In this document: positions 1 to 61,168 of the stretch, one piece after another
Layout of the letters: each line of letters begins with the position of its first letter
Numbering within the stretch: the first letter of the stretch is position 1
Assembly (NCBI GenBank): GCA_964244955.1
Contig: CAXTKQ010000001.1
Location: 28,265-92,264 of the forward strand
DNA length: 64,000 nucleotides
Source of the DNA: an uncultured Sphingobacteriaceae bacterium
GTDB taxonomy: Bacteria; Bacteroidota; Bacteroidia; Sphingobacteriales; Sphingobacteriaceae
Direction: 5' to 3'
Translations under genes and position numbers: made by a program
Notes under the pieces: generated by a model
What the model was told of the DNA's origin: nothing
Seen by the model: the letters and a program-made list of their open reading frames with translations, nothing else
Database searches by the model: none

Positions 1-22
1 TTTTAGGCGGTAAAAGAAGCAT
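1..22. repeat. Right-hand arm of the abundant repeat family, truncated by the window edge (..TTTTAGGCGGTAAAAGAAGCAT)
   Basis: Exact TAAAAGAAGCAT at 11..22, preceded by the usual AT tract and GC-rich linker. Confidence 0.7.
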
Positions 23-54
23 TGGAAATAAAATGGACCGGGTAGAACCAACAT

Positions 55-447
55 TCAACCGCCAATCCCGCTCAACATGCTGAACAGGATAATGCCTAAA
101 ACGATCAGCGTAATCACGACATACAGATAGTCTTTTTCCAGCAAAAAACTAAAAGCAGAAAGCAGTACGCGGGCAATGGGCGTGGCAATCAGCAATAAAA
201 TCCCGGTTTGGATAATTGCCCGGCCTTTAAATGCTATTACACCTTGTAAAATACCTTGTAATTTTCGCAAAAATTCCGGCTCGCCGTTAAAAGTATGGTA
301 AGAAGCTTTTTCCTGGCCGTGCCGGTAAAGGTAAACCAAGCCTCCAATAAAAACTACCGACATGGAAACGATAACGCCCCAACGCAGCAAAGAACCAATC
401 ATCAGCTTCACGTCCGCATCCTTAAATATCCTTTTTTCGCTGCTCAT
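55..447 (-). CDS. DUF1634-type small membrane protein
   Basis: 130-aa ORF with 3-4 hydrophobic helices. It overlaps the upstream TauE-like ORF by 4 nt, and this pairing is typical of TauE/DUF1634 loci. Confidence 0.65.
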   Translation of the reverse strand: MSSEKRIFKDADVKLMIGSLLRWGVIVSMSVVFIGGLVYLYRHGQEKASYHTFNGEPEFLRKLQGILQGVIAFKGRAIIQTGILLLIATPIARVLLSAFSFLLEKDYLYVVITLIVLGIILFSMLSGIGG

Positions 448-1277
448 ATTTTTCCGCTTAAACCTTTGTAGATCATTTGGATAGCGATCACAGAAATAAC
501 AATGGCAAAAATAGCTTTCAACGATTTAGTGTTGGCTTTCACCAAAATTTTTGAACCGGTAACTGCGCCCAAAACTACGCCCAGCACCACCGGCATCGAA
601 AGGCCCGGATCAATATAACCGCGCTGCAAATAAACCACGGCACTTGCGGCTGCCGTAACGCCGATCATAAAATTGCTGGTGGTGGTAGAAACTTTAAAAG
701 GGATGCGCATGATGTTGTCCATCGCAACCACTTTTAAAGAACCGGAACCAATGCCCAGCAAGCCCGAGATCATGCCAGCAAAACCCATCAAACCAAAACC
801 GCCAAAAATATTGCGCACGCCGTATGGTATTTGCTTCCCTTCGTCCGGAAACGAACTGCCTAACTTTAACCAAGTTGCAGGTTTGCTTGAAACAGGATCG
901 GCCTGTGTGTTTTTCTTTACAAAAGACATGATGGCCGAAAAAAGCAAAATCAAGCCAAACAAAACCGCAATATACGCTGCTGGGATATAACTGGACAGAA
1001 ACGCACCCAAAACTGCGCCGATGGTGGTTGCAATTTCCAAGAACATACCCAGCCGCATGTTCGTGATGCCTTCTTTTACATACGCTGCCGCGGAGCCAGA
1101 AGAAGTGGCAATAACCGAAACCAGCGAAGCGCCAATGGCATAATGGATGTCAACATTGAGCAGCAAGGTAAGCAGCGGGATAATGACAACGCCTCCGCCC
1201 AAACCGGTTAAAGAACCGATCAGCCCGGCAAAATAAGCACCAACCAAAATATATAGGGTTAAAAGAAGTATCGTCAT
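444..1277 (-). CDS. TauE/SafE (DUF81) family anion/sulfite exporter permease
   Basis: 277-aa polytopic membrane protein with the Gly-rich helices (GLTGLGGGVVIIPLL, GLLGIGSGSL) typical of the family. Confidence 0.8.
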   Translation of the reverse strand: MTILLLTLYILVGAYFAGLIGSLTGLGGGVVIIPLLTLLLNVDIHYAIGASLVSVIATSSGSAAAYVKEGITNMRLGMFLEIATTIGAVLGAFLSSYIPAAYIAVLFGLILLFSAIMSFVKKNTQADPVSSKPATWLKLGSSFPDEGKQIPYGVRNIFGGFGLMGFAGMISGLLGIGSGSLKVVAMDNIMRIPFKVSTTTSNFMIGVTAAASAVVYLQRGYIDPGLSMPVVLGVVLGAVTGSKILVKANTKSLKAIFAIVISVIAIQMIYKGLSGKI

Positions 1278-1322
1278 TTGTTTATGTGCATTTGCAATAA
1301 TACTTCTTTTAGCACTGTTTTT

Positions 1323-2420
1323 TTAGGAAGTTAAGCTAAGCGGCAAATTAAAACGCGGCATTTTTTTGATCGCAGGTGCAGAACGGTTTTTCTTAAACGC
1401 TAAATGCTGTTTTTGATAAGCAAAACGTGGGTTTCCTTGGCCGAATAATTGGAAGTTGCTGATTAGTTTTAAAAAATTAATAGTTGAGTTTGGCGCTTGC
1501 TGCGACGGGAGCGCCAACAGGTCGGCAACGTCATCGCCCACCAGATAACGCATCAATTGCATCGTTTCTTTTTGTGGGAAACTTGCATCAACCGTAGAAA
1601 AATACTGGATTAAAGAACGCGTAAGCGATTGGCCATGTTCCGAACTTTTAAAATTTCGGATGCGAATGGCTTCTTCCAGCAATAGCGCTTCTTTTCCGGT
1701 TTCCGGCAATAAGCGTTCGTCCACACCTAATAAAAAACCAATAACGTTCCACAGGTGCATAAACGCTTGTTGCTGTTGATATTCAACCGTCAACCCAAAC
1801 TTGCGCAAACCGCGGACCACAATGAGCGAAAAAGAAAGGTTAGTTCCGGCCATGTCTTCCTGGTTGACTGGCAAACCCCAATCTTCGTTCCATTTGCCGC
1901 TTTTTTGGGTGTAAAAACGGATGGCGGCGTGCAGCAAACGCACTTTCAAAATGCTGACAAAGGCTTTTCCTTCAGGCTCAAAAGCGTCTGGCGCCATCAC
2001 GTCCCAAATAAAATCGGCGGTTTCGCCTAAACGGTGTTCGGGCTTGTTTCGGATACGCTCGGAAAGGTCCAAAACTTTTGCGCCATCAGCCGCAGCATAA
2101 CAATAAGGAAGCGAAAGCAAACCCAGCAAATTCATGATGGCCGTAGCGTGAACGGCAAAAAAAGCGGTGCCTTGCTGCATCAGCTTTTGGTCGGCCCAGT
2201 TGGGTGATTTTTTTGCGCCAGCGAATACTTCTTTTACCGCATAAAAATCATCAAGCTGGTTAAGCTGGTGGTTGTAGGTGAGGGAATCTAAAAACGAACG
2301 GAAATTTGCTTTTTGACTGTCATCTGCAAAAACTTCCGCAATTAATTGATCTGCAAAAAAATCTCCCTGCCGCCGCATGGCAGAGAGGTTTTGAAAGGTA
2401 GGATCTACTGCTGGTTTCAT
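1323..2420 (-). CDS. Oxygenase MpaB/DUF2236 family protein
   Basis: 365-aa ORF with the pattern LPYCYAAADGAKVL ... RLGETADFIWDV ... VRLLHAAIRFY ... GLPVNQEDMAGT, which matches my memory of DUF2236. Confidence 0.55.
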   Translation of the reverse strand: MKPAVDPTFQNLSAMRRQGDFFADQLIAEVFADDSQKANFRSFLDSLTYNHQLNQLDDFYAVKEVFAGAKKSPNWADQKLMQQGTAFFAVHATAIMNLLGLLSLPYCYAAADGAKVLDLSERIRNKPEHRLGETADFIWDVMAPDAFEPEGKAFVSILKVRLLHAAIRFYTQKSGKWNEDWGLPVNQEDMAGTNLSFSLIVVRGLRKFGLTVEYQQQQAFMHLWNVIGFLLGVDERLLPETGKEALLLEEAIRIRNFKSSEHGQSLTRSLIQYFSTVDASFPQKETMQLMRYLVGDDVADLLALPSQQAPNSTINFLKLISNFQLFGQGNPRFAYQKQHLAFKKNRSAPAIKKMPRFNLPLSLTS

Positions 2421-2517
2421 CTCGTCAATTTACAGCAATAGAATGGTTGGCAGGGCAAATAGTTTGTTATACCGTCTCGATGTTTTCTTCTTTCTTCGAA
2501 TTAAAAAAATCAATTAA

Positions 2518-5460: not shown

Positions 5461-6411
5461 TTATTTTGATGCTGTTTTTACCGGCAAAAAAACCTCGGCC
5501 ATCATGCAGCGCGCGCTGCCGCCACCGTTAGTTTCGATGGTGTTTAAAGGCGAATGGACGAGTTTGCAATAGCGTTCCAAAGTTTCGGTTTGAGCTTTTG
5601 TTAAGGCTAAAAAAGCCGTTTCCGACATTGCCAATAAGCTTTCCCCGGATTTTGATTGAAGCTGGAGCATGTTTCCTGCAAAAGCATTCATTTGCGCAAA
5701 AGAGATTTCGACCACTGCTTTTCCCGATTGCTGCAATGCTTCTTTTACCGATGTTTTTTCAGTGCCGTTTACAATCGAATCTAAACAAATTACCGCAAAC
5801 CGGTCGCCAATACACATCAAAACATTGGTATGATAAATGGCTTTTCCGGCTTCATCCTCGGCATGGAACAAAACGGATTGGTAACCCGAAATTTTGCAAA
5901 ACTCATTAATTACCTCAACATCCGTTCTTGGCGAGATGCAAGCATAAGCGAGTTTGTTTTCGCGGTCTAAAACCAAGCTTCCGGTCCCTTCTAAAAACTG
6001 GTTCTGCGTTTCAAAATAACTCAAATCATAAACCTGTTTTGCTTCAAATGCTTCTTTTATGACATAAAAAACCTTGCGTTCCAGCCTTCGGTTTTCAGCT
6101 TGCATCGGGTATAAAAAAACAGAACCGTCTTCATGAAAAGAAACCCAGTTATTCGGGAAGATGGAATCCGGCGTGTGCGGTTCGGGCGTATCGTTTAAAA
6201 CGGTAACATCAACTCCGTTTTGGCGCAAAATATCCACAAAAGCATCAAACTCCAGCAAGGCTTTTTGCTGCACTTCGGTTTGCCTGCCTGGTTTTTGGAA
6301 AGCGTTGCTTGCGGCCGTTTGCTCGTTAAAAGCAAAATTTACGGGCCTGACCATCAGGATATGCGAAGTTAAATGTTCAATTGTTGGTTTCAATGCGGTG
6401 TTTTTTATCAA
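5461..6411 (-). CDS. ctlX: Amidinotransferase-fold guanidino-modifying enzyme, CtlX-like (citrulline utilisation hydrolase-like)
   Basis: 316 aa with N-terminal ILMVRPVNFAFNEQTAASNAFQ and C-terminal GGGSARCMMAEVF (catalytic Cys motif). Confidence 0.6.
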   Translation of the reverse strand: MIKNTALKPTIEHLTSHILMVRPVNFAFNEQTAASNAFQKPGRQTEVQQKALLEFDAFVDILRQNGVDVTVLNDTPEPHTPDSIFPNNWVSFHEDGSVFLYPMQAENRRLERKVFYVIKEAFEAKQVYDLSYFETQNQFLEGTGSLVLDRENKLAYACISPRTDVEVINEFCKISGYQSVLFHAEDEAGKAIYHTNVLMCIGDRFAVICLDSIVNGTEKTSVKEALQQSGKAVVEISFAQMNAFAGNMLQLQSKSGESLLAMSETAFLALTKAQTETLERYCKLVHSPLNTIETNGGGSARCMMAEVFLPVKTASK

Positions 6412-6878: not shown

Positions 6879-7997
6879 CGGCATGCTCATGCAATGAAAA
6901 CCGCCGCGCGCACGTGAAAGTTCGGCGGAAGGAAAAGTAATAATGGTGTTGCTGATGTTTTCGGTTTTCAATTCGTTTCGTTCCAGTTGTTTGAGCAAAT
7001 CTGCTGCTTTGATCACGCTAAAACCTTGTTCTTTAAATGCGGACAGGGTTTTGTCATTGCGGTCGTAAGCCAAAACCACGCCTTCTTTTAACGCCAATAA
7101 ATTACAGCCGTCTGTCCACTGCTCGCGCGAATCGTAAGGAAAAACATTGTTGCCCGAATAGATGAACTGCGTTTTTTCTGTAAAGCCCAATTCGTTTTCG
7201 CTGATTTCGGAAAGCAAGTCCTCCAAGCGTTCAAACCTTTTTGGCCTGTCAATTTTCCCGTTTTCAAACTGGATAATTTCCGGCTGGTCTGGTTTTTTGG
7301 TTTCTGTGAGATAGTTGACTGGCTGAAGTTCCTGATCGTTTTGCTGCGGGTTAAAAAGCGAAGAAAGCAAAACCCACAAGCCTTTTTTTACCTGGGTAAA
7401 AACAGTATCGAGGTGCATAAAATCGCGTTTGTGCGGAATTTTGATCACCGTAACTTTTTGCACCACGTTTTTCTCGAACAACAATTTAATCACGTTGCTT
7501 GCTGCCAATGGCGTTGTGCGTTCGCCGCAGCCAATTAGTAAATGGTTGTTGCTCACCATCATCACGTCGCCGCCTTCCAAGGTGTTTTGCTGGTCAATTT
7601 CTCCTTCGGGGATTAAAAAATGCTCTTCGGTTTGCGGCACTTCGATGATGTTTTGCCGGTAAGCTTCAAAAAAAGGATGGTTAAAAAAGATGTATTTGCA
7701 CAACAAAGCCTCGCGCGAACGCGCTTTACGGGCCGGTTTGTTCAGTAAAATATGGTTGTTGATCGTTGTTCCCAAATCGCGCGTAAAAATTAAATTAGGC
7801 AAAGGCGCGAAAAAAATCTTTCCGTCGGGCAACGTTCCCGAAATAAAAAGCGTGGCCAAATCCGCCGAAGGCAAATCCATCAAAAGTTGCTGTTGCTGAT
7901 AATTGCAGTTTTCTGTGGCACAAACCGCGGCGATTAATTGCTGCCGAACGGTTTGTCCATTTAAAACTTCTGCCAGCAAAACTTCCAGTTCAATCAC
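6858..7997 (-). CDS. Arginine deiminase family protein, C-terminal three quarters (catalytic part)
   Basis: PLPNLIFTRD, LEGGDVMMV..LLIGCGERTT, FMHLDTVF, REQWTDGCN, and GGFHCMSMP (catalytic Cys) align with ArcA-type deiminases. The ORF starts at a GTG that overlaps the stop of the preceding fragment. Confidence 0.75.
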   Translation of the reverse strand: MIELEVLLAEVLNGQTVRQQLIAAVCATENCNYQQQQLLMDLPSADLATLFISGTLPDGKIFFAPLPNLIFTRDLGTTINNHILLNKPARKARSREALLCKYIFFNHPFFEAYRQNIIEVPQTEEHFLIPEGEIDQQNTLEGGDVMMVSNNHLLIGCGERTTPLAASNVIKLLFEKNVVQKVTVIKIPHKRDFMHLDTVFTQVKKGLWVLLSSLFNPQQNDQELQPVNYLTETKKPDQPEIIQFENGKIDRPKRFERLEDLLSEISENELGFTEKTQFIYSGNNVFPYDSREQWTDGCNLLALKEGVVLAYDRNDKTLSAFKEQGFSVIKAADLLKQLERNELKTENISNTIITFPSAELSRARGGFHCMSMPLFRSEL

Positions 7998-8371
7998 TTT
8001 TTCGGAAGCATAAAAGCCAGGCTGGTTAGGTTGTAAAATTGGCGCATACTGTTTTTAGCATCAATTTCTTGGATTTTGCCCTGGATCAAAGAAGGGTCTA
8101 AAAAGTAAAGTAAAACCTTGACATACAAATCGTACTCTTTTTTGCGGATCGTTTCGAGGTGGACAATATCTTCAAAAAGCCAATCCTGTGCTTTGGAAGG
8201 AATCACTTTTCCTAACCCTTTATCCGGGCTATGGATCAAAATCCGGCGCAAATCGCCAATTTCGGAACTGACTTGTAGATGAAAAGTATCTTTTTGAAGC
8301 ATATAAGTTTTAAGTGGAAAGGCAAATCTACCAGAATATTTAGAAACGGTTTCGATGCTGTTTTTATCCAC
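7994..8371 (-). CDS. Arginine deiminase family protein, N-terminal fragment in a different frame
   Basis: VSSEIGDLRRILIHSPD ... DWLFEDIVHLE matches the ArcA N-terminus (HSE.G.L..V...P ... LLFDD). It is out of frame with 6858..7997. Confidence 0.65.
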   Translation of the reverse strand: MDKNSIETVSKYSGRFAFPLKTYMLQKDTFHLQVSSEIGDLRRILIHSPDKGLGKVIPSKAQDWLFEDIVHLETIRKKEYDLYVKVLLYFLDPSLIQGKIQEIDAKNSMRQFYNLTSLAFMLPKK

Positions 8372-8419: not shown

Positions 8420-10189
8420 ATGGATTTTATTTTAGAAGCTGCCGTTCGCGCCGTAAAAACTTTGTTTGCTGTTGGTATCTCTGCGGAAAGCCTGAGCCTG
8501 CAGCAAACACGCAAAGAATTTGAAGGCGACGTAACTTTAGTTGTTTTTCCGCTGACAAAATTTTCCAAAAAACCACCGGAACAAACCGGAACTGCCATTG
8601 GCGAGTTTTTGGTAAATGAAGTGGAAGCAATTGAATCTTTCAACGTCATCAAAGGCTTCTTAAATTTATCCCTTAAAAACAGCTATTGGCCGGCTGTTTT
8701 TTACCAGCAGATCAACCAGCCCGGTTTCGGTTCTTTTTCCGCAAACGGAAAAAAAGTGATGGTGGAATATTCTTCGCCCAATACCAACAAACCCTTGCAT
8801 TTGGGCCATGTGCGTAATAATTTGCTGGGCTATTCCGTCGCCGAGATTTTAAAAGCGAATGGTTATGAAGTGATCAAAGCGAATTTGGTGAACGATCGCG
8901 GCATTCATATCTGTAAATCTATGCTGGCCTGGCAGAAGTTTGGCAACGGCGAAACGCCTGAAAGTTCGGGTTTGAAAGGCGATCATTTGGTGGGGAAATA
9001 TTATGTGATCTTCGATAAAGAATACAAAAAGCAGATCGAGGAACTGAAAAATCAGGGCGAAGCCGAAGACGAGGCCAAAAAAAATGCGCCATTAATCCGC
9101 GAAGCGCAGGAAATGCTGCAAAAATGGGAGCAGGGCGATGCGCAAGTGATTGCTTTGTGGAAGGAAATGAACGGCTGGGTTTATGCCGGTTTTGAGGAAA
9201 CGTATAAAAAGCTGGGTGTAGATTTTGACCAGTATTATTACGAATCGAATACGTATTTATTAGGGAAATCCATTATTGATGAAGGCTTGGAAAAAGGTGT
9301 TTTCTTTAAAAAGCCGGACGGTTCAGTCTGGATTGATTTAACGGCCGATGGTTTGGATGAAAAATTGGTTTTGCGTGCCGATGGAACTTCGGTTTACATG
9401 ACGCAGGATTTGGGAACGGCGCAGCTAAAATACGATGAATACCAAACCGACAAAGCCATTAATGTGGTGGGCAACGAGCAGGATTACCATTTTAAAGTGC
9501 TGTACCTGATCTTAAAAAAGTTAGGCAGAAGCTGGGCGCAAGGTTTGTACCATTTATCGTACGGTATGGTAGATTTGCCTTCCGGAAAAATGAAATCGCG
9601 TGAAGGAACGGTGGTGGATGCTGATGATTTGATTGCAGAAATGGAAGCCACCGCCAAAGCGCAAACCGATATTTTAGGAAAAGCAGCCTATTTCCCGGAA
9701 GTAGAAAAGCAGGATTTGTACCATACCATTGGCATGGGCGCGTTAAAATATTTCCTGTTGAAGGTGGAGCCTAAAAAACGCTTGCTGTTTGACCCGAACG
9801 AGTCTGTAGATTTTCAGGGAAACACCGGTCCGTTTATTCAATATACTTATGCCCGTATCCGATCGGTTTTGACCAAAGGCGGGTTTAATGCCGATACTGT
9901 TTTTATGCCTATAAAAACAGTATCGCCGGTAGAAAAAGATTTGATCGTGCAATTGGAGCAATATCCCACGGTTTTAACGGAAGCTGCCCAAGCTTACAGT
10001 CCCGCTGTCATCGCCAATTATGTTTACGAACTGGCCAAGCTATACAATAAATTTTACCATGAAGAAAGTATTTTGAAAGCGGAGGAAGAAGCGGTAAAGC
10101 AGTTTCGGTTGCAATTATCAGCAGTTTCGGCTGAAATCATTCAAAAAGCAATGCAATTATTAGGGATAAAAGTTCCTGAAAGGATGTAA
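8420..10189 (+). CDS. argS: Arginine--tRNA ligase
   Basis: 589 aa with the class I HIGH-type motif PLHLGHVRNN, the KMSKS-type motif GKMKSREG, and a C-terminal DALR-like anticodon-binding region. Confidence 0.95.
   Translation: MDFILEAAVRAVKTLFAVGISAESLSLQQTRKEFEGDVTLVVFPLTKFSKKPPEQTGTAIGEFLVNEVEAIESFNVIKGFLNLSLKNSYWPAVFYQQINQPGFGSFSANGKKVMVEYSSPNTNKPLHLGHVRNNLLGYSVAEILKANGYEVIKANLVNDRGIHICKSMLAWQKFGNGETPESSGLKGDHLVGKYYVIFDKEYKKQIEELKNQGEAEDEAKKNAPLIREAQEMLQKWEQGDAQVIALWKEMNGWVYAGFEETYKKLGVDFDQYYYESNTYLLGKSIIDEGLEKGVFFKKPDGSVWIDLTADGLDEKLVLRADGTSVYMTQDLGTAQLKYDEYQTDKAINVVGNEQDYHFKVLYLILKKLGRSWAQGLYHLSYGMVDLPSGKMKSREGTVVDADDLIAEMEATAKAQTDILGKAAYFPEVEKQDLYHTIGMGALKYFLLKVEPKKRLLFDPNESVDFQGNTGPFIQYTYARIRSVLTKGGFNADTVFMPIKTVSPVEKDLIVQLEQYPTVLTEAAQAYSPAVIANYVYELAKLYNKFYHEESILKAEEEAVKQFRLQLSAVSAEIIQKAMQLLGIKVPERM
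9893..9924. repeat. Perfect 14-bp-stem palindrome GATACTGTTTTTAT-gcct-ATAAAAACAGTATC inside argS
   Basis: Built from both orientations of the second over-represented 12-mer (9894..9905 and 9912..9923). Confidence 0.85.
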
Positions 10190-16053: not shown

Positions 16054-16082
16054 CGCTAAATTTATATGGATAAAAGAAGCAT
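16054..16082. repeat. Solo arm of the abundant repeat family
   Basis: ..CTAAATTTATATGGATAAAAGAAGCAT, with the exact 12-mer at 16071..16082. Confidence 0.75.
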
Positions 16083-22133: not shown

Positions 22134-22231
22134 ATGCTTCTTTTATGCCCATAAATTTGGTGGTTGAAATTATAACCGGTACAAAAACCTCAAAAAAAAC
22201 CACACTAATTTTTATGCGGTAAAAGAAGCAT
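22134..22231. repeat. Inverted doublet of the abundant repeat (REPIN/MITE-like), 98 bp
   Basis: Left arm ATGCTTCTTTTATGCCCATAAATTTGGTG and right arm CACACTAATTTTTATGCGGTAAAAGAAGCAT, in inverted orientation. Confidence 0.85.
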
Positions 22232-40621: not shown

Positions 40622-40664
40622 TGCTTCTTTTATCGGCATAAATTTAGTGTGGTAAAAGAAGCAT
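40621..40664. repeat. Compact inverted doublet of the abundant repeat, 44 bp
   Basis: ATGCTTCTTTTATCGGCATAAATTTAGTGTGGTAAAAGAAGCAT, whose first base is the last base of the stop codon TGA. Confidence 0.85.
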
Positions 40665-43606: not shown

Positions 43607-44500
43607 ATGGAATATTCCAAGTTGGGAAAATCAGATTTGTTGGTCAGCAAAATTGGTTTTGGTTGCATGTCGCTTCGCGGAAACAGTGATGACCATAAAA
43701 CTTTGCTAAACAAAGCATTGCAATTGGGCATCAATTATTTTGATACGGCCGACTTGTATGAAGACGGCGAAAACGAATCCAAGATTGGAACTTTGCTCAA
43801 ACCCAACCGAAAAGATATTGTATTGGCCACCAAAGTTGGCAACCAAAAACAAGCCGACGGCAGCACAACTTGGAACGCAAGTAAAGCTTACATTTTGCAA
43901 GCTGCAGACAAAAGTTTAAAACGTTTGCAAACAGACTACATTGATTTGTACCAATTGCACGGCGGCATGATCGAAGACAATATTGACGAAACGATTGAAG
44001 CTTTTGAATTTTTGCAACAACAAGGCAAAATAAGATATTATGGTATTTCTTCCATCCGCCCAAATGTAATCCGCGAATATGTTGCCAAATCAAACATTAC
44101 AAGTGTGATGATGCAATACAGTTTGCTGGACCGCCGGCCGGAAGAAACTTGTTTTGAGCTGCTCGAAAAAAACCAAATCAGCGTGGTAACTCGTGGAAGC
44201 GTTGCGCAAGGTTTATTGGTTGATAAACCTGCAAAACCGTATTTAAACTTCACTGAAAAAGAGGTGGTAAAAACAGTATCGGCCATTCAACAAATTGCTG
44301 GCGAAACCAAAAGTAAAGCACAAGTTGCGTTGCAATTTGCTTTGGCACCAAAAGTTGTTGCCAGTGCGGTAATTGGAATCAGGACGGTTGCACAATTGGA
44401 AGATGTGGTTGCAACTTTGGATGTTCCGCAACTTAAACCAGATGAATTGGATTATTTAAAAAATGCAATTGAACTAAATAAATATGAACAGCATCGGTAA
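43607..44500 (+). CDS. Aldo/keto reductase
   Basis: GFGCMSL, FDTADLYEDGENE, LATKVG, and IDLYQLHG. Confidence 0.88.
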   Translation: MEYSKLGKSDLLVSKIGFGCMSLRGNSDDHKTLLNKALQLGINYFDTADLYEDGENESKIGTLLKPNRKDIVLATKVGNQKQADGSTTWNASKAYILQAADKSLKRLQTDYIDLYQLHGGMIEDNIDETIEAFEFLQQQGKIRYYGISSIRPNVIREYVAKSNITSVMMQYSLLDRRPEETCFELLEKNQISVVTRGSVAQGLLVDKPAKPYLNFTEKEVVKTVSAIQQIAGETKSKAQVALQFALAPKVVASAVIGIRTVAQLEDVVATLDVPQLKPDELDYLKNAIELNKYEQHR

Positions 44501-44583
44501 GAAAGATACTGTTTTTACCGACATAATTTTGATATTCAAATTTTCTGTTCTTGCAATTGTCCAATGGTGATTAAAGTAAATTT

Positions 44584-47219: not shown

Positions 47220-47221
47220 AT

Positions 47222-49136: not shown

Positions 49137-49224
49137 GATGCTGTTTTTATCGTATAAAAGTTTAACCTGCCAATGCTTGGTTTTGTTCTGGAAAAGCTTT
49201 CGGCGGTAAGCTATCAGCTTTCGG

Positions 49225-50353: not shown

Positions 50354-50387
50354 GAGACTGTTTAAATTTATATCATAAAATTTTACA

Positions 50388-50483
50388 ATGCTTCTTTTAT
50401 GCCTATAAATTTGGTGTGGCCAGATATTTAAGAGGCACAAAAACGACAAAAAGACAATGATTTTTATGTGGTAAAAGAAGCAT
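50388..50483. repeat. Inverted doublet of the abundant repeat, 96 bp
   Basis: ATGCTTCTTTTATGCCTATAAATTTGGTGTGG ... ATGATTTTTATGTGGTAAAAGAAGCAT. A further arm ending TAAAAACAGTAT lies at 50533..50544. Confidence 0.85.
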
Positions 50484-50806
50484 GGCAAATAAGTTTAACA
50501 AAATTTAAACAGGTTATAAGAATTTATAGGGGTAAAAACAGTATCTGTATTATTTAGGCTGAAAATAGCTCAAATAAAATTTGTTGTTCTTTTAATCTTT
50601 CGCCACAAAGAATAATTGTAGGCTTTATTTCTGCCAAACACTTTCAAAATTTAACTACTGTTGCTAATAATAAAACGATAAATGCTTTTAAGCATAGATT
50701 TTTCTTTTTTATTAAAAAAATTGTAAAAATTTGATCGCAAATTCAATTTAAACATAACTTTGTTTTAGTTTTAACAAATTTTTAACATTTGTATCCTAAA
50801 ACAAGT

Positions 50807-53800
50807 ATGAAAAAACTTCTATTCTTTCTTTTATCGTTTACGGCTTCGCTAACTGTTTTTGCCCAAAACCGAACGATAACTGGTGTAATAACCGATGCAA
50901 AAGACGGTTCAGGTTTGCCCGGGGTTAGTGTTACCGTAAAAGAAATCCCAACGATAGGGACACAAACAGATGTAAGCGGAAAGTACAGCATTTCTGTTCC
51001 TGCTAATGCCAAAACCCTCATTATAAATTATATCGGGTTCGGTACGCAACAGCTACCCATTACCGGAAGTGTGCTTAATACGGCCATCCGCGAAAATGCA
51101 CAGCAATTATCAGAAGTGGTGGTGGTGGGTTATGGTACGCAAACCCGACAATCGGTAACCGGTTCGATAGCTGGCGTTACGGCAAAAGACATCGCCGAAA
51201 CGCCCGTGCCAAGTGTTGAACAGGCTATCCAGGGCAAAATTCCGGGCGTGGCCATTCAATCCAACAATGGTAAATTAGGGCAGGGGATACAAATACGGGT
51301 AAGGGGCACTTCCTCTTTATCTGCCAGCAACCAGCCTTTGTATGTAGTTGATGGTATCCCGATTACTTCTTCCAGCCAGTCAGGCACAGATGCGCCAACC
51401 AACCCAATAGCCGATATTAATTTTAACGATGTTGAATCATTGGAAGTGTTAAAAGATGCTTCTGCATCAGCTATTTATGGTGCAAGGGCTTCCAACGGTG
51501 TTGTTTTGATCACCACAAAAAAAGGTAGGGCAGGCACGCCGCGCATCAATTTTACGGCCCAATTTGGCGGCAGCCAGCCTTCACGGCACCGCGACTTTTT
51601 AAACGCTTCGCAGTATGTGCAGTTGGAAGAAAGGGCCGGGCTGGGGGCTGCTACACAGGATTTTAACGCCGGTTATTTTTCAACTTTGGCAGATGCACAA
51701 AGCTATTACAAATCCTATGTGGATCGTCGCCTTACACGTTACGCCGCCGGAAGCACCAACTGGCAAACGGCAGCCGTAAACACAGATTGGGAAAAACTTG
51801 CTTTTCAAAAGGCGCCGCAATCGCAATATGATTTAAACCTGTCTGGCGGAACCGATAAAACCACGTATTACATCGGCGGCCAATACTTGAACCAGGATGG
51901 GATTTTGATTGGCAATAATTTTAAAAGATATTCCGGCAGGATCAACCTGGACAGTAAGATGTACAAAAATTTTACGGTGGGCATGAACCTGAGCTTTACC
52001 AGGACGATCAATAACCGTGTATCTAACGATGATGCTTTTTCTACCCCGCTGCAAGTTGTGGCTTTGTCGCCCATTACACCACAATTTGACCCGAGAACAG
52101 GCTTGTTAAGCGGTACTTTGCCAAACGGTGTTTCCAGTACTTCAGCTTTGGGCGGCACGCTGGCCAGTACGTACCCGGTTTATTATAACCCATTGTTAAG
52201 CCTTGGCAATGCTTCTTTTATCACCAATGTTTACCACACTTTAGGCAATGTTTACGGCGACCTTAAAATTGCCAAAGGTTTTTCTTTCCGTACCGAGTTT
52301 GGAATTGACCAGATCAACCAGAACGAAGACAGCTATTACAACAGTTTGACTTTCAGGAATACCGGTACGGCCAATGGTTCCGGCTCAGATGGTTATAACC
52401 AGGTTTTAAACTATACCACCAACAATTACTTTACCTATAAAAACACTTTTGGCGATAACCACATTGTTGATTTTACAGGCGGCATGAGCTACCAACTTTC
52501 GCAAACCAATTATAACCTGGCAACGGGCACACAGTTTCCTTCCGATGCTTACCGCACTATATCTTCGGCCGCGGTAACAACAGGCTCTTCCGGAAGTACA
52601 AATTATAGTTTTGTGGGCTATTTTTTGAGGGGAAATTATGCTTATAAAAACAAATATTTAGTTTCTGCAAGTATCCGCGAAGATGGTTCTTCCCGTTTTG
52701 GCAAAGGCAATAAATATGGCGTTTACCCGGCCGGGTCTATCGGTTGGGTTTTGACAGAAGAAGACTTTTTAAAACCGGTAACTGCTTTAAGCAATTTAAA
52801 AATCAGGTTGAGCTATGGGTTAACCGGCAACGCAGAAATTGCCAATTATGCTGCTTTAGGCTTATTTACCGGTACGGCCAGTTACAACGGCGTTGCCGGC
52901 CAGGCAATTACCCAGATTGCCAACCCAAATTTAAAATGGGAATCTACGGCACAGTTTGATGCCGGTTTAGATTTTGGTTTGTTCAATAACCGTTTGTCCG
53001 GTTCGTTTGATTTTTATCGCAAAAACACTTATGACCTTTTGTTTAATGTAAATGTTCCGGGTACTTCCGGTTTTTCTACGCAATATCAAAATGCAGGCAA
53101 ATTGTACAACCAGGGTTTAGAGTTTGGCTTATCTACACAAAACTTAGTGGGCAAGTTTAAATGGTCAACTTCTGCCAATATCGCTTATAACAAAAACGTG
53201 GTTACCGATGTAGGCGGGCAAATTTTGGGCACCAATGATTTAAACCGTGTACTTGAAGGGCAGCCAATCGGCGTTTTTTACGGAAGGGAATATGCCGGGG
53301 TTGACCCTGCAAACGGCGACGCGATCTATTATTTAAATACCACTAACCCCGACGGAACACGTAACCGCACCACAACCAATAATTACAATGCTGCCCAAAA
53401 CGTAGTGTTGGGAAACCCAACGCCAAAAATCAACTACGGCTTTACCAATAATTTTGCTTATTCGGGCTTTGATCTTTCTGTTACTTTCCAAGGTGTTTAT
53501 GGCAACAAAATTTACAACGGCGGCGGCCAATACATGAGCGCCAATGCCAGCAACGGTTTTGACAACCAGACAACCGACCAGATGAACTACTGGAACAAAC
53601 CGGGCGATATCACCAATGTGCCCGAGCCGCGTTTGTTTCAGGGAAATGGGATTGCAGCTTCCAGCCGTTATTTGTCCAACGGTTCTTATTTAAGGTGTAA
53701 AATTGTTTCTTTCGGTTATAACCTGCCTAAAGAATGGCTTAGCAAAATCAATGTGGCCAGGGCAAGGATTTTTATGAATGCTTATAACCTGTTTTTGGTA

Positions 53801-53945: not shown

Positions 53946-55340
53946 ATGATGAAAAAATTGAACATAAAATATACGGTTTGTACAGGTTTGATGCTTCTTT
54001 TATCGGCCTGTAATAAGCAATTAGATTTAAAACCAACGCAAAGCATCGAAACCAGCCAGGCTTTGTTAACGGCAAAAGATGTACAGATTACCTTGATCGG
54101 TGCTTACAGTAATTTAGCTGCGCTTGATGCAAACGGTGTAGAACATTTGTATAGCGGCTCTGTATTTTTAATGCCAGACCTGTTAGGAACTTCCGGGCAA
54201 AATATTATAGAGTGGACGGGAACGTACCAACAATTAACGGAGATGGCCAACCAGTCAATTACGGTTACCAATAGTTATGTAGCCAATACCTGGCTTACGG
54301 CTTATAACGATATCAACCAGATCAACAATGTACTTTCCGCGTTGGATAAAGTAACGGTTCAAGCCGATAAAGACCGGATAGAAGGCGAAGCCAAGTTTTT
54401 GCGTGGTATGATTTACTTTGATTTGGTAAGGCTTTATGGAAAAGCTTGGAACGATGGCGACCCGAATACCAACCTCGGCGTTCCGATAGTTTTAACGCCG
54501 ACTGCACAAATTGACGCTTCTTCTTATGTTGCCCGTTCTACCGTTGGCCAGGTTTATACACAAGTACTTTCTGATTTGACAACGGCACAAGCCAAGTTAC
54601 CGGCTTCCAACAGTTTTTATGCCAATAAATATTCGGCGGCAGCCTTACTTTCAAGGGTTTATATGCAGAAACTGGACTATGCCAATGCTGCAACCGCTGC
54701 AAATGTGGTTATCAGTTCGGGTGCTTTCGGTTTAATGCCGACTTACGCTGCCGAGTTTCCGTACAGTACAACCGGCCCGGCACATGCTGACAACACTTCC
54801 GAAGATATTTTTGCTGTCCAGATTACTTCGCAACAAGGTGTTAACGCTTTAAACGAATTTTATGGCGGCTCAACATATGGCGGCCGCGGCGATGCTGTCA
54901 TTTCACCTTCTTTTCCTGCCGAATTTGAGCCGGGAGATGCGCGCGGTGCTTTCTTTTATAATGATGGTGGTTCGCTTTATTCCTCTAAGTTTCAAAACCA
55001 ATATGGCAACATTAAAATATTGCGTTTGGCCGAAATGTATTTAAACCGTGCCGAAGCAAATCTGCGTTCAAATACCACTACCGGCGATACGCCTTTAAAC
55101 GATGTCAACAAAATCCGTACACGTGCCGGTTTGGCCCCGCTTGCTTCCGTTACTTTGGCACAGGTTTTAACCGAACGCAGGCACGAGTTGGCTTTTGAAG
55201 GCGGTTTCTTTTTGCACGATGCCAAACGGACGAAGCAAAGCGTAGGCGCGCTCGAATGGAACTCGCCTAAACTAGTGTTTCCCATCCCGCAACGCGAAAC
55301 CATTGCTAACCCCAATTTAAAACAAAATACAGGTTATTGA
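53946..55340 (+). CDS. SusD/RagB-family nutrient-binding lipoprotein
   Basis: Lipobox LLSAC and the RLAEMYLNRAEA, ERRHELAFEG pattern, directly after SusC. Confidence 0.9.
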   Translation: MMKKLNIKYTVCTGLMLLLSACNKQLDLKPTQSIETSQALLTAKDVQITLIGAYSNLAALDANGVEHLYSGSVFLMPDLLGTSGQNIIEWTGTYQQLTEMANQSITVTNSYVANTWLTAYNDINQINNVLSALDKVTVQADKDRIEGEAKFLRGMIYFDLVRLYGKAWNDGDPNTNLGVPIVLTPTAQIDASSYVARSTVGQVYTQVLSDLTTAQAKLPASNSFYANKYSAAALLSRVYMQKLDYANAATAANVVISSGAFGLMPTYAAEFPYSTTGPAHADNTSEDIFAVQITSQQGVNALNEFYGGSTYGGRGDAVISPSFPAEFEPGDARGAFFYNDGGSLYSSKFQNQYGNIKILRLAEMYLNRAEANLRSNTTTGDTPLNDVNKIRTRAGLAPLASVTLAQVLTERRHELAFEGGFFLHDAKRTKQSVGALEWNSPKLVFPIPQRETIANPNLKQNTGY

Positions 55341-55344: not shown

Positions 55345-55400
55345 ATGCTTTTTTTAGCAGGTAAAAATTGGTATCAAATTTATGCCGATAAAAACAGTAT
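55345..55400. repeat. Mixed inverted doublet (ATGCTTTTTTTA-type arm plus TAAAAACAGTAT-type arm)
   Basis: ATGCTTTTTTTAGCAGGTAAAAATTGGTATCAAATTTATGCCGATAAAAACAGTAT, 5 nt after the SusD stop, followed by the GGCCGG..CCGGCC hairpin at 55401..55423. Confidence 0.75.
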
Positions 55401-56143: not shown

Positions 56144-56305
56144 AAAAGAGGTACTGTTTTAACGTCAGGATGGATAAAGCTAATAGAACATTTTGGTTTT
56201 TAAACCTCTAATTATTTTTTCGTTATAAACCCAACTGGTCAGGATTTGCAAATCCCGGCTTTTGAGCTTAAGGTTTCCTAATCCTTATTTGTGAATTGCC
56301 TAAAA

Positions 56306-56349
56306 AAAAGAAGCATGGCCAGGAGAAACTTCCCGGCCATGCTTCTTTT
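56306..56349 (-). terminator. Hairpin AAAAGAAGCATGGCC..GGCCATGCTTCTTTT built from two inverted copies of the repeat core
   Basis: 15-bp perfect stem and 14-nt loop, 16 nt after the stop of the oxidoreductase gene. Confidence 0.75.
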
Positions 56350-56364
56350 ATGCCTATAATTTCA

Positions 56365-57774: not shown

Positions 57775-57855
57775 ATTAAATTTTTTGCCGATAAAAGAAG
57801 CATCGTTCTGTCGCTACAGGTTTTTGCACTAATTTTTTGCCGGTAAAAGAAGCAT
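57775..57855. repeat. Two direct copies of the repeat arm
   Basis: ..TTTTTTGCCGATAAAAGAAGCAT (to 57803) and GCACTAATTTTTTGCCGGTAAAAGAAGCAT (57826..57855). Confidence 0.8.
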
Positions 57856-58692: not shown

Positions 58693-58731
58693 TAAAAGAA
58701 GCATTTTTGTTTTTTGGCGATGCTTCTTTTA
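58693..58731 (+). terminator. Hairpin TAAAAGAAGCAT-15 nt-ATGCTTCTTTTA directly after the cdaA stop
   Basis: 12-bp perfect stem made of the two orientations of the repeat core, with a T-rich loop and tail. Confidence 0.65.
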
Positions 58732-60528: not shown

Positions 60529-60616
60529 ACTTAATTTTTACGAACCGCTAATATTAATGTTTCAAAATCCCTGCTATATTGTTGTCATTTAGGCAATTGC
60601 TTTTTGCTTCCGCGTA

Positions 60617-60645
60617 CACCAATTTTATAGGCATAAAAACAGTAT
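60617..60645. repeat. Solo arm, TAAAAACAGTAT-terminated subfamily
   Basis: CACCAATTTTATAGGCATAAAAACAGTAT, identical to 27943..27971 except for the first base and the last 7 nt. Confidence 0.8.
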
Positions 60646-60664
60646 GCGGGCTTTTTATTGGTTT

Positions 60665-61048
60665 TTAAGGATTGGGTTTTGGCACTTCCGTTTTTGGTTG
60701 AACAACCGGCGGCAAACGTTTAATTGGCATTGTGTAGATTACGGTTCCATCAGGTTTTACAATTGGCATATTCCAGTTGCCCTGGGGCGTGGCAATCGGC
60801 ATGTTATCCAACGAAGCCGTTAAATTTTGGTTTGTTGAAGTGGGTTTTTTTGGTTGAACACGAGGCGAAAACAATAAGTTCAAATCGTTTTGTTGCTGTT
60901 TAGAAAGCTTGTTTGATGGAACCGTATCGGAAAAACGATTAACGCCAGGTACATTTTGAGGCGTACGGTTTGGCGTAATTGTATTTTGCTGGGCCTTTAG
61001 CGTAAAAACCGTTCCTGAAAACAAGATGAAGAAAATAGCTTTTTTCAT
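60665..61048 (-). CDS. Small secreted Pro/Gln/Asn-rich protein
   Basis: 127 aa with a signal peptide (FFILFSGTVFTLKAQ) and a low-complexity mature part. Confidence 0.5.
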   Translation of the reverse strand: MKKAIFFILFSGTVFTLKAQQNTITPNRTPQNVPGVNRFSDTVPSNKLSKQQQNDLNLLFSPRVQPKKPTSTNQNLTASLDNMPIATPQGNWNMPIVKPDGTVIYTMPIKRLPPVVQPKTEVPKPNP

Positions 61049-61115
61049 AACCTCGGGATTTGATGTGTAATTTACAAATGTTTATCCAAAAACTTTGCAA
61101 ATTAAATGCAAATAA

Positions 61116-61168
61116 AAAAAGCATCCGGGAAAATCCGGATGCTCTTTTTATGCCCATAAAAACAGTAT
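61116..61168 (-). terminator. Hairpin AAAAAGCATCCGG..CCGGATGCTCTTTTT plus an adjoining repeat arm (ATGCTCTTTTTATGCCCATAAAAACAGTAT)
   Basis: 13-bp stem with one bulge, immediately downstream of the aminopeptidase N stop. Confidence 0.7.

Follow-up and report, generated by a model that had tools for sequence, protein, structure and literature searches.

A clade-restricted 12-bp word of Mucilaginibacter with the sequence-level features of a DNA uptake signal

Bacteria of the Mucilaginibacter arboris clade carry, approximately once per kilobase, a 12-bp word that behaves at the sequence level like the uptake sequences known from Neisseria and Haemophilus. The motif is restricted to this one clade of Mucilaginibacter, a soil bacterium; it arises by substitution and not by insertion, is conserved far better than its flanks, and is read at the level of DNA, whatever the strand or frame. 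The best fit, held tentatively, would be a USS/DUS-like uptake signal of natural transformation. We know of no earlier description of DNA uptake sequences from the phylum Bacteroidota.

The word and its extended site

Within the window (the whole 64-kb stretch of DNA analysed), the word is present in two exact forms, ATGCTTCTTTTA (32 copies, 16 on each strand) and ATACTGTTTTTA (12 copies, three on the plus and nine on the minus strand). Dinucleotide shuffling predicts 0.05 and 0.02 copies, respectively, and Markov models (orders 1-5) fitted to the window's own sequence predict 0.03-0.5 and 0.03-0.24. The excess claimed in the initial annotation is therefore real (44 exact copies against approximately 0.05 expected); every coordinate listed there for both words was found again, including the 16 plus 16 copies of the first, and its gene names agree with the Pfam assignments (DDAH/amidinotransferase, Beta_elim_lyase, argS, split ADI, glgB-like, SusC/SusD, HisKA_3, AKR). 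Its counts of 11 copies for ATACTGTTTTTA and 43 in total were each one short because the copy at 38699(-) had been missed; this copy lies in a BadF/BadG-like ATPase gene, and also raises the exact copies in coding sequences from the 14 reported to 15. The pattern ATRCTKYTTTTA is matched by 58 copies in the window, and 68 copies differ from one or other word at no more than one position.

Both words represent alleles of a single motif, ATRCT(TC/GT)TTTTA. Specificity is sharp, the exact word being found 792 times and each single substitution at most 54 times, except G3A (121 times). On the 3' side of the 12-bp core, a 7-nt G+C-rich spacer (yCssnnn) is followed by a 4-5-nt A/T tract in genes and spacers alike, with 94-99% A/T at +19 to +23 even within genes, confirming the fixed distance already noticed in the initial annotation. 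The extended site is the same whether copies lie in ORFs (n = 328) or stand alone between genes (n = 280), and the single unit is asymmetric, not palindromic; the putative recognition site is best explained as an asymmetric one of approximately 24-27 bp on double-stranded DNA. Such a core with an A/T tract has the architecture of the Pasteurellaceae USS, in which a core is combined with phased A/T tracts. Between genes, the tract is frequently TAAATTTG, which fits TAnnTTTG.

Features of the window (strand in brackets; L081 and L083 are related loci):

11..22 (-): core ATGCTTCTTTTA, intergenic, 3' of DUF1634 gene; conserved in L081
1260..1271 (-): core variant ATACTTCTTTTA, N-terminus of TauE ORF, M-T-I-L-L-L
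1300..1311 (+): core variant ATACTTCTTTTA, intergenic TauE/MPAB, divergent pair with 1260; kept in L081 and L083 although flanks differ
2225..2236 (+): core variant ATACTTCTTTTA, MPAB_Lcp_cat ORF, antisense, V-K-E-V; ATGCTTCTTTTA at this site in L081
5469..5480 (+): core variant ATGCTGTTTTTA, 3' end of DDAH/amidinotransferase ORF
5736..5747 (+): core ATGCTTCTTTTA, DDAH/amidinotransferase ORF, antisense, V-K-E-A; GT allele in L083
6048..6059 (+): core ATGCTTCTTTTA, DDAH/amidinotransferase ORF, antisense, I-K-E-A
7397..7408 (-): core ATACTGTTTTTA, ADI ORF, sense, D-T-V-F-T; identical in four genomes
8046..8057 (+): core ATACTGTTTTTA, ADI N-terminal fragment ORF, antisense
8355..8366 (+): core variant ATGCTGTTTTTA, at or upstream of ADI start
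9894..9923 (cores 9894+, 9912-): 30-bp perfect palindrome ATACTGTTTTTA-tgccta-TAAAAACAGTAT, inside argS
16071..16082 (-): core, intergenic, between convergent genes
20665..20676 (+): core variant ATGCTGTTTTTA, N-terminus of RND MFP ORF
22134..22305 (22134+, 22220-, 22294-): three-core cluster, 5' of OEP gene; IS5-type TIR box 15 nt upstream of the 22220- and 22294- arms
23426..23437 (-): minor variant ATGCTGCTTTTA, HisKA kinase ORF
24461..24537 (24461+, 24526-): convergent core pair, intergenic RR/RND pump
27846..28003 (27879+, 27960-): 158-bp MITE, IS5-type TIRs, convergent cores, MFP/pump spacer of RND operon; compact 44-bp pair at the orthologous site in L083
30526..30537 (+): core, divergent intergenic OEP/glgB-like
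30832..30843 (-): core, glgB-like ORF, antisense, V-K-E-A
32838..32849 (-): core ATACTGTTTTTA, overlaps stop codon of glgB-like gene
32896..32999 (32896+, 32988-): convergent core pair, intergenic glgB-like/GH18
34083..34094 (+): core, between convergent GH18/LuxR-type RR genes
34405..34416 (-): core variant ATGCTGTTTTTA, LuxR-type RR ORF, sense, D-A-V-F-T
35008..35019 (-): core, HisKA_3 kinase ORF, sense, H-A-S-F-I
36769..36780 (-): core variant ATACTTCTTTTA, intergenic
36952..36963 (+): core, 21 nt off GAPDH stop codon
38699..38710 (-): core ATACTGTTTTTA, BadF/BadG-like ATPase ORF
40621..40664: compact 44-bp pair, core-N6-TAAATTTA-N6-core(rc), from last base of NrtR stop codon; a terminator-like hairpin (40674-40715) is separate and 3'
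41747..41758 (+): core, 3' end of ORF237, antisense, L-K-E-A
43059..43070 (-): core, Beta_elim_lyase (ltaE-like) ORF, antisense, A-K-R-S
43218..43229 (-): minor variant ATGCTTTTTTTA, ltaE-like ORF
43442..43453 (-): core, ltaE-like ORF, antisense, V-K-E-A
44268..44279 (-): core ATACTGTTTTTA, AKR ORF, antisense, V-K-T-V
44506..44517 (+): core ATACTGTTTTTA, 5 nt past AKR stop codon
48103..48114 (-): core variant ATGCTGTTTTTA, AKR stop codon, edge of low-GC R-M island
49138..49149 (+): core variant ATGCTGTTTTTA, AKR ORF
50354..50516 (50388+, 50472-): 163-bp MITE, IS5-type TIRs, convergent cores, 3' of TopIB
50533..50544 (-): core ATACTGTTTTTA, adjoins 50354..50516 MITE
52209..52220 (+): core, SusC ORF, sense, N-A-S-F-I
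53991..54002 (+): core, SusD signal peptide, sense, M-L-L-L
55345..55400 (55345+ minor variant, 55389-): convergent pair between convergent SusD/MarC
56305..56350 (56305- with one mismatch, 56339+): divergent pair flanking a G+C-rich hairpin; sole copy resembling a bidirectional intrinsic terminator
57792..57855 (57792-, 57844-): two tandem cores, divergent promoter region
58693..58731 (58693-, 58720+): divergent pair between convergent CdaA/hybrid HK
60634..60645 (-): core ATACTGTTTTTA, intergenic
61113..61168 (-): minor variant 61113- and core ATACTGTTTTTA 61157-, directly 3' of peptidase M1 stop codon

Copies inside and outside genes

ORFs were called heuristically. In the window, 15 of the 44 exact copies lie in ORFs and 29 (66%) between genes, close to the two thirds first reported, the intergenic share of the window being approximately 10%. 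Among 1249 copies, 29% are coding; the density is 0.35/kb in coding and 4.5/kb in non-coding DNA (a 13-fold intergenic enrichment), which resembles the distribution of Neisseria DUS. Coding copies are spread evenly along gene length, lie on both strands (168 sense, 199 antisense) and use every frame except that reading TAA, in keeping with the several frames initially seen. Exact and one-off copies number 802 and 149 between genes, and 258 and 328 within them. All intergenic classes carry copies, with the highest density between convergent genes (6.5/kb) and 3.6/kb in divergent promoter regions; in the window, 16 intergenic copies are directed at a gene start and 20 are not. Many copies lie 0-60 nt from stop codons, and the inverted pairs near gene ends were seen again. 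Pairs have preferred spans of 30, 44, 57-58 and 93-94 bp and tandem copies a period of 35-36 bp; inverted pairs fold well into hairpins (z = -4 to -10), and the spacers of paired units have no complementarity to each other.

Some intergenic copies belong to a MITE of 150-200 bp with 17-nt IS5-family TIRs (AGAGCCTGTTTAAATTT), a probable TNA target duplication and two or three cores approximately 32-44 bp from the element ends, found 75 times in 1.3 Mb. TIR-bounded elements hold 19% of intergenic and 13% of all copies (4 of 58 in the window, plus two half-elements). An 859-bp IS of the IS5 family (L113:1840-2698), which shares these TIRs and shows a TAA duplication, has no core, so that transposition is independent of the core.

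Spread among relatives and conservation

The motif is shared with sister genomes, its density being 1.0/kb (573 plus, 569 minus) in 1.13 Mb of related metagenome contigs, whose loci were selected on the presence of a convergent pair. Relatives with 86-93% identity in argS, among them the cultured M. arboris, harbour 13-18 copies per 21.8 kb, one at 83% has two in 8 kb, and one at 75% has none in 17 kb; 80 further loci from Sphingobacteriaceae/Bacteroidota showed no excess, and nothing comparable to the word is present in outgroup Mucilaginibacter. Coding copies occupy orthologous positions, and in 197 orthologous comparisons (72-93% identity), made within BLAST-alignable segments, there were no indels; in 70% the 12-mers were identical, and in 15% the orthologue had another allowed allele, with flanks approximately 80% identical. 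Loss of intergenic copies through a gap of at least 4 nt in the orthologue was observed for 4 of 116 aligned copies, and smaller gaps accounted for 11 more. The palindromic pair in argS encodes DTVFMPIKTVS, conserved throughout the clade. It overwrites a loop that varies strongly among other Mucilaginibacter, where its sequence is unrelated. Low-GC genes, which are probably foreign DNA, carry the motif 4-7 times more rarely (0.09 copies/kb in ORFs with GC <0.36 against 0.32-0.41/kb at typical GC) despite the A/T-rich word, and the low-GC Tsp45I R-M island (45.5-48.0 kb) has no motif copies. The copies do not, then, reduce to one IS or MITE without coding enrichment or conservation in sister genomes.

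Possible functions of the word

Every sequence-level hallmark of uptake sequences testable here is present: a density of approximately 1/kb, strand symmetry, a core with an A/T tract in phase, conserved genes with in-frame copies gained by point substitution, restriction to a clade with its sister genomes, and depletion in foreign-looking DNA. The uptake signature proposed in the initial annotation stands for these hallmarks, and is as a whole partly supported. We infer that the reader of the site would be an uptake receptor and that bacteria of the clade may be competent. A surface or periplasmic DNA receptor would bind fragments bearing the site, and conspecific DNA would therefore be preferentially taken up and recombined. 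Over time, such uptake bias (molecular drive) would fix word-creating point mutations where the sequence tolerates them, chiefly in spacers but also in signal peptides, at the ends of genes and in variable loops of proteins; foreign DNA of recent arrival would not yet have the word, and an IS5-derived MITE that by chance had two or three sites would have added intergenic copies.

Against uptake, the enrichment between genes and the fixed pair geometries, for which we know of no equally structured USS or DUS, suggest a binder that acts as a dimer or multimer, or copy-and-paste spread. The word could instead be the site of an abundant cytoplasmic protein without a role in uptake (an IHF/HU-like architectural protein, a nucleoid-organising factor or a self-marking factor), or could arise from an unknown repair or methylation process with a sequence bias, for which the cyanobacterial HIP1 word is a parallel; in either form, thousands of sites would be maintained by selection. 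This reading is possible but doubtful. DNA-bending proteins typically recognise a core and, at a distance of one to two helical turns, an A/T tract, and IHF sites combine a core with a dA+dT element; the 30/44/58-bp pairs and the tandem period suggest dimers or arrays, and the cores of the MITE have positions near the ends that in IS10 and other transposons are occupied by host-factor sites. Conservation and foreign-DNA depletion are equally expected under selection for any host-specific binding site as under drive. However, we know of no architectural or regulatory protein whose exact 12-mer sites are enriched approximately 20-60-fold in coding sequence and can overwrite protein loops, the core is dispensable for transposition of the autonomous IS, and the lack of orientation relative to genes, with all intergenic classes occupied, speaks against a regulator. 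Since outgroup Mucilaginibacter lack such a word, the protein or its specificity would have to be a recent invention.

It is unlikely that the copies are selfish MITEs or REPIN-like doublets spread by an IS5-family or RAYT transposase, with the 12-mer as their best-conserved part. The core-bearing MITEs, the IS that shares their TIRs, and the inverted, regularly spaced, hairpin-forming doublets agree with such spread, as does the higher exact to one-off ratio between genes, expected if copy-and-paste adds intergenic copies. The REP/REPIN fit initially proposed nevertheless holds only for the approximately 19% of intergenic copies within the MITE: the 29% in ORFs show no indels against orthologues or outgroups, few aligned intergenic copies are missing through gaps, the units are not REP-type palindromes, the parent IS is coreless, and a crude pattern search found no HUH/Y1 (RAYT-like) ORF among 1059. 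A transcription or RNA signal (terminator, mRNA-stabilising hairpin, Bacteroidota promoter of the -33 TTTG/-7 TAnnTTTG type, or structured RNA) is improbable. Proximity to stop codons, the density between convergent genes, the folding of pairs, the terminator-like 56305-56350 and the promoter-like A/T tracts would suit it; against it are the absence of strand or gene-start bias, the copies in divergent promoter regions, the pair within the RND operon, the non-complementary spacers, the absence of TTG at the -33 distance, and zero Rfam or tRNA matches, while terminator-like sites are not enriched (33 against 26 +/- 5) and lie mostly elsewhere. Very improbable is a polar chromosome-maintenance motif of the Chi (RecBCD/AddAB) or KOPS (FtsK) type, which would be over-represented in resident coding and non-coding DNA and depleted in foreign DNA, as here; yet the orientations are interleaved and balanced (16/16, 3/9) in a window almost certainly within one replichore, head-to-head pairs, unexpected for polar motifs, are frequent, and the 12-mer with its tract is enriched >100-fold, far above the known 8-mers. 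None of the readings as promoter, terminator, Rfam RNA, Chi/KOPS or REP/RAYT passed every test.

As regards the uptake signal, 1.3 Mb contained neither a prepilin motif of type IV nor a Walker motif of PilB/PilT, and a literature search returned no uptake or transformation data for the M. arboris clade. The one competence gene seen, on a motif-bearing contig, encodes a protein of the ComEA family, homologues of which are common among non-competent bacteria. Self-biased uptake does exist in Bacteroidota, since Riemerella columbina favours its own DNA in transformation (PMC7965970).

Abundance and sequence of the word

By far the commonest 12-mer in the window is ATGCTTCTTTTA (the TC allele), with 32 exact copies, 16 on each strand; a related word, ATACTGTTTTTA (the GT allele), differs from it at positions 6-7 and has 12 exact copies, three on the forward and nine on the reverse strand. 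Dinucleotide shuffling leads to an expectation of 0.05 and 0.02 copies in the window, respectively, and Markov models of orders up to 5, a comparison proposed in an initial annotation of this DNA, expect at most 0.5 against the 44 exact copies seen, a value that is itself inflated by the word because the models were trained on the window. An excess of orders of magnitude (44 exact copies in the 64-kb window, where 0.05-0.5 would be expected) is a hallmark of the DNA uptake sequences of Neisseriaceae (DUS) and Pasteurellaceae (USS), which the initial annotation had put forward, beside REP/REPIN elements, as the kind of feature concerned. All positions that it had listed for the two words were recovered, as was its count of 32 for ATGCTTCTTTTA; its overall total of 43, however, rises to 44 with a copy at 38699 on the reverse strand that had been overlooked. 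Its estimate that about two-thirds of the copies are intergenic stands, with 29 of the 44 exact copies falling in intergenic DNA, which makes up ~10% of the window, but 15 rather than 14 lie within open reading frames (ORFs). Its gene assignments agree with Pfam.

Among the matches listed, at least 120 metagenome loci (1.13 Mb), selected for having a head-to-head pair of copies, carry the word at 1.0/kb (573 forward, 569 reverse). In the window and 1.2 Mb of related DNA, positions 6-7 of the core read TC in 916 copies and GT in 279, against 48 and 27 for the one-step intermediates TT and GC; the two positions covary strongly across all loci, and position 3 is either G or A. The exact word has 792 copies and each remaining single substitution 0-54, which indicates a very sharp specificity. 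On the 3' side of the core, a G+C-rich spacer of 7 nt (y, C in 71-78%, s, s, n, n, n) precedes a tract of 4-5 nt (+19 to +23) with an A/T content of 94-99%, the choice between these two bases being free. T is avoided at position -1, and in isolated copies conservation ends by ~27 nt. The profile is identical in 328 copies deep in ORFs and in 280 isolated intergenic copies; hence, the site is asymmetric, ~24-27 bp long, and read as DNA, not as codons. Both words are alleles of this one site, and the covariation of TC and GT could reflect two 'dialects' or two readers. The GT allele accounts for ~45% of coding copies versus 15-28% of intergenic copies, and its share varies among genomes, being higher in the M. 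arboris locus.

Placement in and between genes

The 1249 copies counted in 1.3 Mb are divided between ORFs of at least 100 aa (29%, 0.35/kb) and the spaces between ORFs (71%, 4.5/kb), a 13-fold intergenic bias that is based on ORFs called by a length heuristic with over-extended 5' ends. At least 250 copies are well inside genes, and coding copies are spaced evenly along genes, apart from an artefact at the over-extended starts. Orientations are used equally, as in DUS and USS, both in the window (16+/16- and 3+/9-) and in ORFs, where a balanced 168 copies are sense and 199 antisense. The coding copies are distributed over the frames A1 (136), S1 (103), A2 (63), S0 (56) and S2 (9), and the sole unused frame (A0, 0 copies) is that in which the complement reads TAA. 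Between genes, density is 6.5/kb for convergent, 4.6/kb for tandem and 3.6/kb for divergent neighbours.

A promoter of the Bacteroidota sigma-A type (-33 TTTG/-7 TAnnTTTG) was rejected: there is no TTG at -33, coding copies do not have TAnnTTTG, and 16 intergenic copies in the window face a gene start versus 20 that do not. A general role as intrinsic terminator was likewise rejected. Terminator-like sites show no enrichment (33 versus 26 +/- 5 expected) and are mostly elsewhere, one core pair separates the MFP gene from the pump gene within an RND efflux operon, and only 56305-56350 has the form of an intrinsic terminator. Cores are often found beside hairpins rather than forming them, e.g. 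at 32855-32890 and 36920-36945, and at 40674-40715, where a hairpin with a 19-bp stem flanked by A and T runs resembles a bidirectional terminator and adjoins the 44-bp core pair at 40621-40664 without being part of it. A structured RNA was discarded, with no Rfam match at the gathering score and no tRNA in the window, as was a polar motif of the Chi/KOPS type, since orientations in the window are balanced and interleaved, with no strand bias. Short ORFs that would use the ATG in the word as their start codon (MLLL...) have no consistent stop codon or frame.

Pairs, tandem copies and a composite MITE

Head-to-head pairs favour spans of 30, 44 and 57-58 bp (a step of 14 bp, or one A/T tract plus one spacer) and of 93-94 bp, the spans of 28-58 bp being inflated by locus selection; tandem copies favour a period of 35-36 bp. 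Inverted doublets at such favoured spacings are a property of REP/REPIN elements. In the 30-bp pair the TTTTA of each core serves as the A/T tract of its partner, and in the 44-bp pair at 40621-40664 one TAAATTTA is common to both cores. Simple target duplications were not found around bare core pairs, where the flanks just lengthen the palindrome.

Some copies are carried by a miniature element (MITE) of 150-200 bp that recurs 41-75 times (75 elements of 90-260 bp bounded by terminal inverted repeats, TIRs, were counted). Its TIRs, AGAGCCTGTTTAAATTT, are 17 nt long, each end has a core 15 +/- 1 nt further in, the cores number two or three, and the target duplication is probably TNA (3 bp). 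An IS5-family element of 859 bp (DDE_Tnp_1 + DUF4096; 1840-2698 of a word-bearing locus, L113) shares these ends, is flanked by a TAA duplication and contains no core. In shared TIRs, length, copies and duplication, the composite element, and this alone, resembles the MITEs of IS5-family insertion sequences (cf. the Correia elements of Neisseria): its 17-nt TIRs are identical to those of the 859-bp element but, unlike that parent, its interior is made of the genome-wide word. The insertion sequence is intact, with TIRs starting GAGCCTGTTTAAA, and directly adjoins one of its own MITE derivatives. The representatives in the window are as follows.

27846-28003, MITE
50354-50516, MITE
22220 and 22294, half-elements of the MITE
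27846-27861, 27988-28003, 50354-50369, 50501-50516, 22249-22264 and 22323-22338, TIR box CCTGTTTAAATTTTG

As the source of the word, the MITE was rejected, for no coding copy lies in it, its share of the intergenic copies is 19% (165 of 882), and its parent is without a core. Exact copies relate to one-off copies as 802:149 between genes and as 258:328 within genes; the higher ratio between genes fits a copy-and-paste process that adds to the intergenic pool. The TIR box CCTGTTTAAATTTTG, of IS5 type, is a second over-represented word, with 342 sites in 1.3 Mb, and only ~44% of its copies adjoin a core. The densest core array seen (4.5/kb for its locus, L131) has four MITE-type units in direct tandem at 3419-3874, with a period of ~119 nt, and the contig ends within the array.

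Evolution by substitution

When the window is aligned with the syntenic DNA of three relatives, the coding copies fall at orthologous positions and are more conserved than their flanks. Alleles interconvert, with TC changing to GT in one step at 5736, and the word is gained or lost by substitution, e.g. at 5592, where the window has GAGCTTTTGTTA and two relatives GTGCTTCTTTTA. Among 197 coding comparisons (72-93% identity), scored within BLAST-alignable segments only, 138 gave identical 12-mers, 30 swaps between allowed alleles, 29 substitution differences and none an indel; the flanks of coding copies are ~0.8 identical, and 0.8^12 is 7%. Intergenic copies were identical in 87 of 116 comparisons scored in the same way, with flanks at ~0.7. 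In argS, a perfect 30-bp palindrome at 9894-9923 encodes (D/N)(T/A)VF(M/I)P(I/V)KTVS throughout the clade, and in other Mucilaginibacter the same loop is hypervariable, unrelated and of equal length; the protein has been overwritten here by the DNA word. Copies in genes in several frames, arising by point substitution at tolerant positions, are as in DUS and USS. The E. coli SOS box has the form CTG-N10-CAG, and literature matches to ATACTGTTTTTA are papers on the E. coli SOS response; the likeness to this LexA site is a coincidence, because the argS palindrome is CTG-N20-CAG and the copies are far too many.

With GC content taken as a proxy only for foreign origin, the density of coding copies is 0.32-0.41/kb at typical ORF GC versus 0.09/kb (5 copies in 53 kb) at GC <0.36, a depletion that occurs despite the word being 75% A+T. 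Under-representation in acquired DNA, by the same proxy, is a further property of DUS and USS. There is no copy in the low-GC island at 45.5-48.0 kb of the window, which is composed as follows and is probably a horizontally acquired type II restriction-modification system.

45500-48010, low-GC island (GC 0.30-0.32 versus a window mean of 0.41)
45518-46021, DUF6557
46080-47219, N6/N4 DNA methylase
47222-48004, Tsp45I-type restriction endonuclease

A strong force acting at the level of DNA, independent of strand and frame, creates and keeps the exact 12-mer and its A/T tract in the resident DNA of the clade. It works by point substitution, and foreign-looking genes are not yet affected.

Distribution among relatives

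The window comes from a metagenome-assembled genome of the Mucilaginibacter arboris clade. Per 21.8 kb, relatives have 18 copies (93% argS identity), 13 copies (89%, the cultured M. arboris, GCA_009754915.1) and 18 copies (86%). A relative at 83% has two copies in the 8 kb sampled, a weaker presence, and one at 75% has none in 17 kb. No excess of the word was found at 80 argS loci of other Sphingobacteriaceae and Bacteroidota (at most 74% identity, among the matches listed), nor was a comparable hyperabundant word, save for a few loci with unrelated local repeats. Like DUS and USS, the word is common to sister species and missing outside the clade. Where metagenome loci can be aligned by BLAST to the window or to one syntenic relative (L081), they are ~75-79% identical in nucleotides. 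Viral contigs gave no match to the paired pattern and only one-per-contig chance matches to the single pattern, and the MITE consensus had no match among plasmids and phages. The topoisomerase IB of the window (49313-50353), encoded beside one cluster of cores, was considered as a reader specific to the clade that would recognise the pyrimidine-rich core, and was rejected, because homologues of 63-66% identity are widespread in Mucilaginibacter, while the Mucilaginibacter sampled from outside the clade are without the word. Several metagenome-assembled genomes labelled Janthinobacterium lividum at NCBI have argS and topoisomerase IB proteins (P0024, P0030, P0033, P0132 and P0133) 83-87% identical to those of the Mucilaginibacter clade; these bins are probably mislabelled or contaminated.

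Function of the word

A full-text search of the literature gave no match for these words as a bacterial repeat, and neither for Mucilaginibacter nor for the Bacteroidota did it find an uptake sequence described. Features of this kind are known; the instance is new in phylum, in sequence and in architecture. To our knowledge, only two families, both proteobacterial, take up DNA in a sequence-specific manner. The most likely function of the word, proposed tentatively and by analogy, would be that of an uptake signal, whereby word-bearing DNA would be taken up preferentially and, through recombination, would spread the word in the genomes of the clade. This reading was chosen because biased DNA uptake with recombination is the only documented process that gives the whole pattern; we know of no other that yields it (USS, DUS). 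The word may then, with like reserve, be the first DNA uptake sequence outside the Proteobacteria, a USS-type signal that would have arisen recently within one Mucilaginibacter clade.

The arrangement of core and A/T tract is USS-like in particular. The Pasteurellaceae USS (in Haemophilus influenzae AAGTGCGGT plus flanking A/T tracts) is likewise restricted to one lineage and has ~1 copy/kb in equal orientations. It too combines a strong core with an A/T tract of free base identity, set at a constant distance beyond it, arises by point substitution, and has copies inside genes that are read in several frames and lie in poorly conserved protein segments. The Mucilaginibacter word differs in its unrelated sequence, in its phylum, in the two covarying alleles (TC/GT) of its 12-bp core, in having only one A/T tract that is clear, 7 bp away from that core, in its much more intergenic location (13-fold), in fixed pair and tandem geometries, and in being partly MITE-borne. 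In the way its copies divide between genes and spacers, and in the inverted pairs found where genes end, the word is DUS-like. The Neisseriaceae DUS (the 12-mer ATGCCGTCTGAA, with ComP as its receptor) is again a 12-nt word at ~1/kb, mostly intergenic with about a third in genes, and its inverted pairs are common just downstream of genes; its 'dialects' have a parallel in the TC/GT and G/A alleles, the proportions of which differ among genomes. The DUS, unlike the Mucilaginibacter word, is not known to have a phased A/T tract; moreover, the pairs of the latter are mostly not terminators, and the DNA sampled showed no type IV pilin.

Two observations count against uptake, namely the unusually rigid geometry of pairs and tandem copies and the location of a fifth of the intergenic copies on MITEs. 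The main rival, which is somewhat less likely, is a site for another genome-wide DNA-binding protein, or a process like that behind HIP1. An IHF-like bender as the reader would also account for the subterminal cores in the MITE, and the cyanobacterial HIP1 palindrome GCGATCGC is likewise hyperabundant in genes and spacers and spread by substitution; HIP1, however, is an 8-bp palindrome with no flanking tract, whereas the present word is asymmetric, consists of 12 bp plus a tract and is far more intergenic. A purely selfish spread, improbable as a whole, would explain a minority of copies only. REP/BIME and REPIN-RAYT systems share with the word hairpin-forming doublets, copies between genes of one operon, and intergenic mosaics in which a short conserved unit alternates in orientation at favoured spacings, but REPs are essentially extragenic and their unit is palindromic. 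With 29% of the 1249 copies in ORFs the word is not almost exclusively extragenic, and its unit is asymmetric, with only TTTTA/TAAAA able to pair and no hairpin of its own. A crude search of 1059 ORFs (~1.3 Mb, several genomes) for an HUH + YxxxNPV pattern found no RAYT.

A membrane-anchored protein of the ComEA family, with two HHH_3 repeats, is encoded on a word-bearing contig (L091, 425-1342, reverse strand). Its ORF has a GC of 0.33 and one copy of the word. Crude patterns for DprA, PilB/T, ComF and prepilin found none in 1.3 Mb from several genomes. In Riemerella anatipestifer, transformation involves ComEC, DprA, ComF, RecA and four unknown proteins, and atypical transformation machinery is known in Bacteroidota (PMC8459023). 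Riemerella columbina, also of the Bacteroidota, prefers its own DNA, and a k-mer search there gave only low-complexity words (PMC7965970).

If the uptake reading is true, it implies a sequence-specific DNA receptor in a phylum with atypical transformation machinery, and a genetic handle on soil Bacteroidota would follow. The origin of uptake specificity is an old open question, and a word with all the genomic hallmarks is now found in Bacteroidota, confined to a young clade that includes the cultured M. arboris and has close relatives without the word. The lineage at 83% argS identity, with its intermediate density, and the coexisting TC and GT alleles would let the birth of such a specificity be followed. 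Since the word occurs in a cultured species, this is testable. Even if the word is not an uptake signal, it represents a genome-wide constraint at the DNA level that rewrites protein loops, at ~0.3 sites/kb of coding sequence.

Further features of the window

The window has two paralogous RND efflux operons (OEP-MFP-pump) at 16412-22057 and 24636-30406, with ~65-73% nucleotide identity, and in the second a MITE lies between the MFP and pump genes. An inverted repeat at 15036-15203, between SusD and ORF221, has 33-nt arms that are 85% complementary and 102 nt apart, and is unrelated to the word. A frameshift divides the arginine deiminase (ADI) gene between two ORFs that overlap (6858-7997 and 7994-8371), whereas the three syntenic relatives have a single gene of 477-481 aa; the cause is either a pseudogene or an error in the metagenome assembly.
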